From Escherichia coli (lineage in GTDB: Bacteria > Pseudomonadota > Gammaproteobacteria > Enterobacterales > Enterobacteriaceae), in the NCBI RefSeq assembly GCF_003334815.1, contig NZ_QOWO01000016.1: a stretch of 64,000 nucleotides of DNA; one strand, given 5' to 3'. The position numbers and the translations under genes were made by a program. Below are positions 1,072-1,254 of this stretch, one piece after another (within the stretch, counting starts at the first letter, position 1; every line of letters starts with the position of its first letter). The notes below the pieces were generated by a model. The model worked only from the letters and a program-made list of their open reading frames with translations, was not told the DNA's origin and searched no databases.

Positions 1072-1254
1072 ATGATCATGCTGATTCTCGCGCCTCTGGT
1101 GGGCGTGCTGGGGGCGCTTTTGCTGGCGTATGGTGCCTGGCTGATTTATCCCCCGGCGGGGTTTGTTGTTGCCGGGGCGTTGTGTCTGTTCTGGTCGTGG
1201 CTGGTGGCGCGATATCTCGACCGTACACAGCCGTCTTTCGGCGGAGGTAAATAG
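1072..1254 (+). CDS. small hydrophobic protein (60 aa), unknown function
   Basis: ORF with GAGG-type RBS upstream of ATG; protein almost entirely hydrophobic (two predicted helices); fills the gap between terminase and portal. Confidence 0.4.

Follow-up and report, generated by a model that had tools for sequence, protein, structure and literature searches.

The region between the terminase and portal genes

The window, by which we mean the whole stretch of 64,000 nucleotides analysed here (Escherichia coli, assembly GCF_003334815.1, contig NZ_QOWO01000016.1), opens within the gene for a large terminase subunit (TerL) and continues into a gene for a portal protein, with a short ORF lying between the two. 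The features of this region are as follows.

1..1060, plus strand: TerL gene, 3' part, truncated by the left edge of the window; TAA stop at 1058–1060; match to PHROG 9 (E 4e-117)
1063..1066, plus strand: Shine-Dalgarno sequence GAGG of ymfR, 5 nt before the ATG and 3 nt past the TerL stop, read from the sequence
1072..1254, plus strand: ymfR-family coding sequence, 60 aa, predicted two-transmembrane hairpin (PHROG 502); ATG at 1072, stop TAG at 1252–1254
1075..1146, plus strand: helix 1, codons 2–25, with conserved P8, G11, G14, L17, L18, G21 and W23 (alignments, AlphaFold2)
1090..1117, plus strand: terminator-like hairpin inside the ymfR coding sequence, a putative terminator in the SfII record
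1150..1227, plus strand: turn (PPAG) and helix 2, codons 27–52, with conserved G30, G35, C38, L39, W41 and S42 (alignments, AlphaFold2)
1210..1251, plus strand: C-terminal tail, codons 47–60, short, weakly basic and variable (dN/dS 0.50; alignment)
1243..1247, plus strand: portal Shine-Dalgarno sequence GGAGG inside ymfR codons 58–59, six bases before the GTG at 1254
1252..1256, plus strand: TAGTG, with one base common to the ymfR stop and the portal start GTG (sequence)
1254..2495, plus strand: HK97-family portal gene; match to PHROG 12 (E 6.5e-146)

In SfII, ST64B, and E. coli genomes, the counterpart of the TerL gene carries the annotation terminase large subunit. An earlier note on this DNA had described the ORF as encoding an almost wholly hydrophobic protein of 60 residues with two helices, located between terminase and portal, and this description is correct in every detail. 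The protein, YmfR, has a GRAVY of 1.18 and two hydrophobic stretches split by the sequence YPPAG, which is part of a turn motif, W-x-I-Y-P-P-A-G, conserved in the alignment. The AlphaFold2 model places helices at residues 2–25 and 27–52, with a mean pLDDT of 74. YmfR is predicted to be a helical hairpin of roughly 60 residues with almost no extramembrane mass; its assignment as a membrane protein is supported by the hydrophobicity, by the predicted two-helix hairpin, and by family membership.

The gene is internal to the late operon for packaging and head, and is tightly fitted between its neighbors. Its ATG lies 11 nt after the TerL stop and has its own Shine-Dalgarno sequence, and the GAGG is kept in alignments with ST64B, phiP27, a Klebsiella phage, and the locus L090. 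At the other end, the TAGTG overlap has as its Klebsiella phage equivalent TAATG, and the portal Shine-Dalgarno sequence is read as codons of ymfR, which accounts for the conserved terminal GG[E/D/K] of the family. The portal N-terminus, MFFSGLF or MFFPGMF, is conserved from the GTG at 1254, and it is this GTG that is used and not the downstream ATG at 1296.

A short hydrophobic motif followed by basic residues is found at the portal starts of the window (1254–1296) and of the loci L002, L086, L095, L098, L099, L100, L104, and L110, examples being M-F-F-S-G-L-F, M-L-L-D-A-L-F, and M-G-I-F-S-G-L-F. This motif was considered as a marker for the presence of the hairpin gene and was rejected, since the pattern M-x-[LF][LF]-x-x-[LF] is found in portals both with and without a hairpin.

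Identity and annotation

From position 1 to approximately 16,000 the window is 97–98% identical to the head and tail genes of the Shigella phages SfII, SfI, and SfIV and of related E. coli phages, and the element is a prophage of the SfII/SfI/SfIV/ST64B kind, whose head is of the HK97 type and whose contractile tail is of the Mu type. The locus is carried by 1373 of 5426 complete E. coli genomes, in which it is annotated as terminase large subunit, ymfR (protein YmfR; the name ymfR comes from PGAP), and phage portal protein, in that order. K-12 derivatives are among these genomes; in their e14 prophage, ymfR is flanked by aaaE, a terminase remnant, and beeE, a portal remnant. Other counterparts are Sb3 of ST64B, SfII_03, and a “putative integral membrane protein” of phiP27; the DNA of these and other phages is nearly identical here and bears the annotation membrane protein. 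The e14, ST64B, SfII, and phiP27 proteins are 88–100% identical to the window protein and share its length, its position, and its overlapping translation signals; nothing material differs.

YmfR matches PHROG 502, “membrane protein,” with an E value of 2.6e-28, residues 1–55 aligning to profile positions 3–57 of 58. Searches of other collections were less productive. The Pfam-A scan of YmfR returned only insignificant matches to unrelated membrane families and no PF06341; NCBIfam gave no match for the window protein or for nine slot proteins; the PADLOC defence models gave no match at E ≤ 1 for the window protein, its Staphylococcus homologue, or the SfV analogue described below; a PDB sequence search with the family profile found no relative at E ≤ 1; and Rfam gave no match on 900–1500. 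A tblastn search of phage records with the 60-residue protein recovered only close relatives, the low-complexity filter having masked helix 1. In the literature, as searched with subscription journals largely outside the search, we found no functional study of ymfR, Sb3, DUF1056, or small terminase–portal membrane proteins.

The window ORF is therefore an already annotated gene, YmfR/PHROG 502, to which the window adds one more allele. Its identity as a real and conserved gene of the late operon that encodes a membrane hairpin is, in our judgment, close to certain.

Two observations on related records were made in passing. The record OR844959.1, “Enterococcus phage Efm 3-10” (matches H18, H93, and H162), is 1764 bp long and approximately 96% identical to the enterobacterial terminase–ymfR–portal region, and is probably contamination or a mislabelled sequence. 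The gene that follows the portal gene in ST64B (L001, NC_004313, 3617–4303) and in SfII (L109, NC_021857, 3763–4413) is labelled “major head protein” in RefSeq; its counterpart is annotated as an HK97-type prohead protease in the Klebsiella phage (L002) and as a head maturation protease in SfV (L003).

Conservation and selection

There are 165 protein clusters that match YmfR at E ≤ 0.01, from Escherichia, Salmonella, Shigella, Citrobacter, Klebsiella, Enterobacter, Hafnia, Yersinia, and Buttiauxella. When 21 members that are 58–97% identical are aligned, 17 columns are invariant (M1, L6, P8, G11, G14, L17, L18, G21, W23, I25, Y26, G30, G35, C38, L39, W41, and S42), all of them inside the hairpin. 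The tail is variable save for the terminal GG[E/D/K], and the Met1/Met3 pair of YmfR is not conserved.

Substitution rates show the same division of the protein. For the hairpin core, taken as the first 46 codons of ymfR, dN/dS is 0.06 against phiP27, 0.09 against ST64B, 0.13 against the Klebsiella phage (where dS is about 1.3), and 0.19 when pooled over 29 distinct alleles, while the pooled value for the C-terminal tail is 0.50. The Klebsiella phage homologue is 61% identical to YmfR in amino acid sequence, and the core dN in this comparison, 0.17, is close to those of TerL (0.15) and portal (0.13). The ORF is present in all 80 related IMG/VR loci, and its frame is intact in 78; the other two have a frameshift after about residue 52, which leaves the hairpin intact. 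Conservation across related prophages had been proposed as a check in the earlier note, with absence or disruption of the frame in close relatives as the refuting result, and these figures favor a real gene.

A variant of 71 residues recurs, whose C-terminal tail is frameshifted and runs on into the start of the portal gene, the hairpin being untouched (L037 and L038, at about 4001–4216 in both; clusters P0086, P0088, P0092, P0115, and P0128). The longest antisense ORF, of 78 residues at 1057–1293, was also considered as a candidate gene and was discarded, being broken in Klebsiella, Staphylococcus, and other homologous regions.

We conclude that the window ORF is a genuine protein-coding gene under purifying selection. 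The earlier note had raised the alternative that it is an artefact of the intergenic sequence, which is refuted by the PHROG 502 match, the low dN/dS, and the conserved frame. A related suggestion would be that the ORF has no function as a protein, and is either a chance ORF or a spacer that couples the translation of TerL and portal. It is indeed very short, translation signals overlap it at either end, and the portal Shine-Dalgarno sequence determines its last residues; but a spacer would hardly retain 17 invariant residues across homologues 58–97% identical at so low a dN/dS, nor would a recognisable motif be expected in 408 cluster representatives, almost all of 45–80 residues (see below), or a single PHROG that spans Staphylococcus and E. 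coli phages. We regard this suggestion as scarcely credible.

Remote relatives and occupancy of the slot

A search of 1.84 billion cluster representatives with the YmfR profile gave 408 matches at E ≤ 0.001, nearly all 45–80 residues long. They have in common the pattern G..G..L.S.GAWL.Y.PAG.I..G..L.WS...AR, and G14, G21, and G35 are invariant across 48 diverse members of the family. Tandem-duplicated hairpins with four helices are found in clusters P0156, P0177, P0188, and P0208 and in the loci L118 (64–399) and L119 (1500–1808). Of the best 150 matches, 11 long ones (84–122 residues) were inspected; these showed only tandem duplications, and none is a fusion to portal or terminase.

The genomic context was looked up for nine remote members. 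Seven of these lie directly upstream of a portal gene (P0137, P0265, P0158, P0225, P0248, P0187, and the tandem P0188), which amounts to seven out of seven when the count is of remote YmfR homologues with readable neighbors, one further contig being too short. All five remote members with readable upstream DNA are directly downstream of TerL. The tandem-duplicated P0177 is found near, and before, an S78 protease, among neighbors that have no PHROG match and with no recognisable portal or terminase, and this locus is possibly a reduced or satellite-like element. In the loci L090 (3752–5587) and L091 (3320–5155), the portal that directly follows a remote YmfR-family hairpin is 611 residues long and has an ADP-ribosyltransferase toxin domain (PF03496, with a faint match to PF01129) fused to PF04860.

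We then surveyed the slot between TerL and portal from the side of the portal. This portal type is found in 2059 phage records; from a list of these, 22 phages that differ in host were taken so as to be spread across the ranking, by the author's choice and not as a strict random sample, and the 600 nt before each portal were scanned. A hydrophobic hairpin ORF of 49–69 residues was present in 10 of the 22, as follows.

Mycobacterium phage HokkenD: PHROG 502 (E 3e-17)
Staphylococcus phage S-CoN_Ph18: PHROG 502 (E 1.3e-16)
Burkholderia phage vB_E173: PHROG 502, unannotated in the record
Azospirillum phage Cd: PHROG 502
E. coli phage vB_EcoS-733R5: PHROG 7105
Ralstonia phage YO168_1: PHROG 7105
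Vibrio phage K343: PHROG 7105
Vibrio phage Strym: PHROG 4810
Enterococcus phage AL3: PHROG 8943
Streptomyces phage Chymera: no PHROG

The remaining 12 phages have no hairpin in the slot, which in some is empty, in some holds a small soluble protein, and in Streptococcus phage Javan49 holds a toxin–antitoxin pair. HK97 was checked separately and is also without a hairpin gene here. According to the earlier note, most phages lack a gene here; for head modules of this class that is wrong, in view of the 10 sampled phages of this portal type that have a hairpin ORF, and lambda too has a gene, W, between its terminase and portal genes (A and B). The TerL–portal slot is held by homologues in phages of Gammaproteobacteria (among them phages of E. 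coli, Salmonella, Shigella, and Klebsiella), Beta- and Alphaproteobacteria, Actinobacteria, and Firmicutes.

In Burkholderia phage vB_E173 (L100, PV072767) the 61-residue PHROG 502 member at 915–1100 (E 5e-15) fills a 186-nt “gap” between the annotated TerL and portal genes. In Streptococcus phage Javan49 (L098, 131–1027) a DinJ/RelE-type toxin–antitoxin pair and a soluble ORF of 90 residues lie between TerL and portal. The toxin–antitoxin pair is a genuine cargo insertion in the slot, unlike the hairpin gene.

The hairpins of PHROG 7105 (including the SfV slot ORF described below), PHROG 4810, and PHROG 8943 are like YmfR in having two helices, a length of 49–68 residues, and the same slot. 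They give weak reciprocal HMM cross-matches with PHROG 502 (E 5.7e-6 to 0.018) and share with it a pattern of G..G...G, hairpin, and G. They differ in being separate sequence families, in having a turn without YPPAG, and in their partner portals.

Base composition, transcription signals, and expression

The earlier note suggested that the protein might be a membrane protein of the moron type, and in the PHROG classification family 502 falls in the category “moron, auxiliary metabolic gene and host takeover.” We looked for the features by which a moron is recognised, namely deviant base composition, a promoter and terminator of its own, and sporadic presence. The GC3 of ymfR is 0.689, against 0.62–0.68 in the neighboring structural genes, and so lies inside or slightly above their range; its higher GC2 is due to its content of Gly, Ala, Leu, Pro, and Trp. 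A consensus scan found no sigma-70-like promoter on the plus strand between 600 and 1700. The terminator-like hairpin at 1090–1117 was rejected as a functional element: its fold z-score of −1.27 is not significant and no better than that of shuffled sequences, and both the hairpin and its T-run are absent from the diverged Klebsiella and L086 homologues. It is probably a by-product of the codons for GVLGALLL. Presence is not sporadic, since every one of the related IMG/VR loci has the gene and SfV has an analogue. Relatives keep the close packing of ymfR, in which translation signals are shared with both neighbors; the hairpin gene of L086 overlaps TerL by 7 nt.

Expression has been recorded in the K-12 e14 prophage, where ymfR mRNA rose with a log2FC of 4.5 under an SOS-inducing drug, together with the lytic genes ymfJ, ymfL, ymfM, ymfQ, and xisE (PMC10012262); these values come from a defective prophage under drug treatment.

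Of the moron suggestion, the membrane part is upheld by the hydrophobicity, the two-helix hairpin, and the family, and the moron part is not borne out by the GC3, the lack of a promoter in the scan, the packing, and the conservation of the slot across phyla. These results bear on one specific role, in which YmfR would be an inner-membrane superinfection-exclusion protein that blocks the DNA entry of incoming phages. HK97 gp15 and T4 Imm act in this way, and small inner-membrane proteins are typical exclusion factors; the PHROG category and the survival of an intact ymfR in the decayed e14 prophage would also fit. Against this role, the upstream region has no promoter-like site, diverged relatives do not keep the terminator-like hairpin, and GC3 is on a par with that of the flanking genes; the gene is present in essentially all close relatives, with SfV swapping in an analogue rather than losing it; there is no PADLOC match; and a genuine insertion in the slot looks different, as the Javan49 toxin–antitoxin pair illustrates. 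In addition, the mRNA behaves like that of a lytic gene (PMC10012262). A moron or exclusion function is quite improbable.

Linkage to the head module

When related prophages are compared, the mosaic junctions are concentrated within or at the final ~100 nt of TerL. SfV has TerL in common with the window to about position 1000, followed by a different hairpin and a different portal. Conversely, the E. coli matches H66–H69 and the phages 606R7 and phi467 have a different TerL and share the sequence of the window from about position 1042 on. In L031 and L032, TerL is 69–78% identical to that of the window, and the last 60 nt, ymfR, and portal are 95–99% identical; in L035 there is no detectable TerL similarity, and identity is 95–97% from ymfR on. 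In ST64B the hairpin again stays with the portal across a mosaic junction. By these comparisons, the hairpin gene as a rule moves together with the C-terminal end of TerL and with the genes for portal and head. Linkage between ymfR and portal over 183 nt is partly to be expected from proximity alone, and it is not absolute, because in phiP27 the end of TerL and ymfR are 95–96% identical to the window and the portal only 79–85%.

The SfV record (L003, NC_003444) contains at 2289–2450 an unannotated ORF of 53 residues with two helices, which matches PHROG 7105 (E 3e-22) and PHROG 502 (E 5.7e-6). It starts with an ATGA on the TerL stop, and it contains the portal start annotated in RefSeq (2392). 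That start is probably too far upstream, because a portal read from the GTG at 2440 would begin with VLLDALF, similar to the MLLDALF of vB_EcoS-733R5.

Linkage to the portal is what would be expected if YmfR were a component of the virion, a few copies being caught at the portal while assembly proceeds in association with the membrane, leaving with the DNA, and aiding its passage across the cytoplasmic membrane of the next host. The family occurs in phages of Gram-positive as well as Gram-negative hosts, for which the cytoplasmic membrane is the only barrier in common, and this would suit such a role. But a membrane hairpin that is inserted co-translationally would not readily be packed into a capsid, the PDB search found no relative in any solved structure, and the searchable literature yielded no report of YmfR in virion proteomics. 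We consider a role in the virion or in ejection highly improbable.

Comparison with known phage proteins

Another protein that resembles YmfR in position and topology is DUF1056 (PF06341, PHROG 1142), represented by orf59c of Streptococcus phage Sfi21, a hydrophobic two-helix protein of 59 residues encoded between TerL and an HK97-type portal. A profile–profile comparison of the two (hhalign) gave a probability of 0.25%, and YmfR has no PF06341 match, so homology is not claimed; DUF1056 is linked to YmfR through other slot proteins alone, and weakly (E 2.4e-7 to 0.06). It is a positional and topological analogue, and possibly a very distant relative.

Lambda gpW is likewise the product of a small gene in the same slot, between the large terminase gene (A) and the portal gene (B), and is a soluble head-completion protein. 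YmfR is unlike it in being a membrane hairpin, hydrophobic throughout, with no Pfam match. Four GenBank records (ON470584, ON470603, ON470580, and PQ793804; matches H1, H2, H19, and H10) label the YmfR homologue “head-tail joining protein W.” These labels are most likely positional mis-annotations carried over from lambda, because the homologue is a membrane hairpin.

Class II holins and pinholins, such as S21, are small, have two transmembrane helices with faces of small residues, and are expressed late. YmfR shares all of these traits. It differs from them in lying outside the lysis cassette, in belonging to a phage type that has its own S holin, in its weakly charged tail, and in having no conserved dual start.

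This resemblance raises the question of whether YmfR is a late membrane-active protein that acts on the membrane itself or on some universal membrane protein of the host, either as an oligomer of the holin, antiholin, or pinholin kind that would adjust membrane potential or the timing of lysis, or as a regulator of a host membrane enzyme. On such a reading, the position between TerL and portal would serve only to give low and late expression. Conservation concentrated in the transmembrane helices, with invariant glycines, agrees with this; the tandem four-helix versions suggest oligomerisation; size and topology resemble those of class II holins; and the Staphylococcus homologue has a very weak match to a holin PHROG (E 0.093). 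Set against these points is the organisation of SfII, which shares this module and is nearly identical to the window element: it carries a complete S/R/Rz/Rz1 cassette after Q, upstream of the packaging genes, so that a phage of this type already has its holin. Furthermore, in the loci examined ymfR is never beside an endolysin, its flanks being TerL and portal; the C-terminal tail is short and weakly charged and the Met1/Met3 pair is not conserved; and a purely regulatory position does not easily explain the conservation of the slot across phyla. We judge a membrane-active role of this kind to be unlikely.

[quoted passage not shown] By analogy, this pair is the functional model that we tentatively favor for YmfR. 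One difference is that T4 gene 40 is not adjacent to the T4 portal gene.

YmfR as a possible membrane accessory of the head and portal module

Our preferred reading, which we put forward tentatively, is that YmfR, lying in the inner membrane, serves as an accessory protein to the late module for head and portal. YmfR would be made late and at a low level, together with TerL and portal. It would have an N-in/C-in topology, because its only charges (net +2) are in the C-terminal tail, and would self-associate in the membrane through the invariant glycines. There it would most likely hold or nucleate the assembly of the portal or procapsid, or the packaging complex, at the cytoplasmic membrane. 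In T4, the portal initiator gp20 is bound to the membrane and requires gp40, membrane factors of the host also taking part (PMC9958956). Such a function would be helpful to the phage but dispensable, which fits the absence of a hairpin gene from HK97 and from about half of related modules.

An accessory role is favored by the anatomy of the operon, the conservation of the slot, the linkage to the module, the invariant glycines, the tandem duplications, and the co-induction in e14, and also by SfV, which pairs its different portal with a hairpin of another family (PHROG 7105). There are also points against it. A soluble portal could be reached only by the cytoplasmic tail, which is the least conserved part of YmfR (dN/dS 0.50); the conserved residues are intramembrane, and so point to a membrane target or to self-assembly. 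No fusion to portal or TerL was found among the best 150 remote matches, of which the longer ones were inspected. Finally, 12 of the 22 sampled phages and HK97 have no such gene, and phiP27 is an exception to the linkage.

A broader proposal, which we hold to be somewhat unlikely, is that the YmfR-type hairpin together with PHROGs 7105, 4810, and 8943, and perhaps DUF1056, constitutes an overlooked and ancient part of the HK97-type head module, a membrane ring or tether that would couple the initiation of portal or procapsid, or packaging, to the membrane.

For annotation, we propose that the window ORF be kept as a ymfR-family gene and not be called a moron, an artefact, or “gpW.” Its wider interest lies in the occurrence across phyla of a hairpin in the terminase–portal slot that is under purifying selection and is often unannotated or mislabelled. 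If the broader proposal is true, membrane-initiated head assembly, so far a peculiarity of T4, would be a widespread strategy, used in Gram-negative, Gram-positive, and actinobacterial hosts; and if YmfR does tie portal assembly or packaging to the membrane, it would be a missing player in the best-studied capsid assembly pathway.
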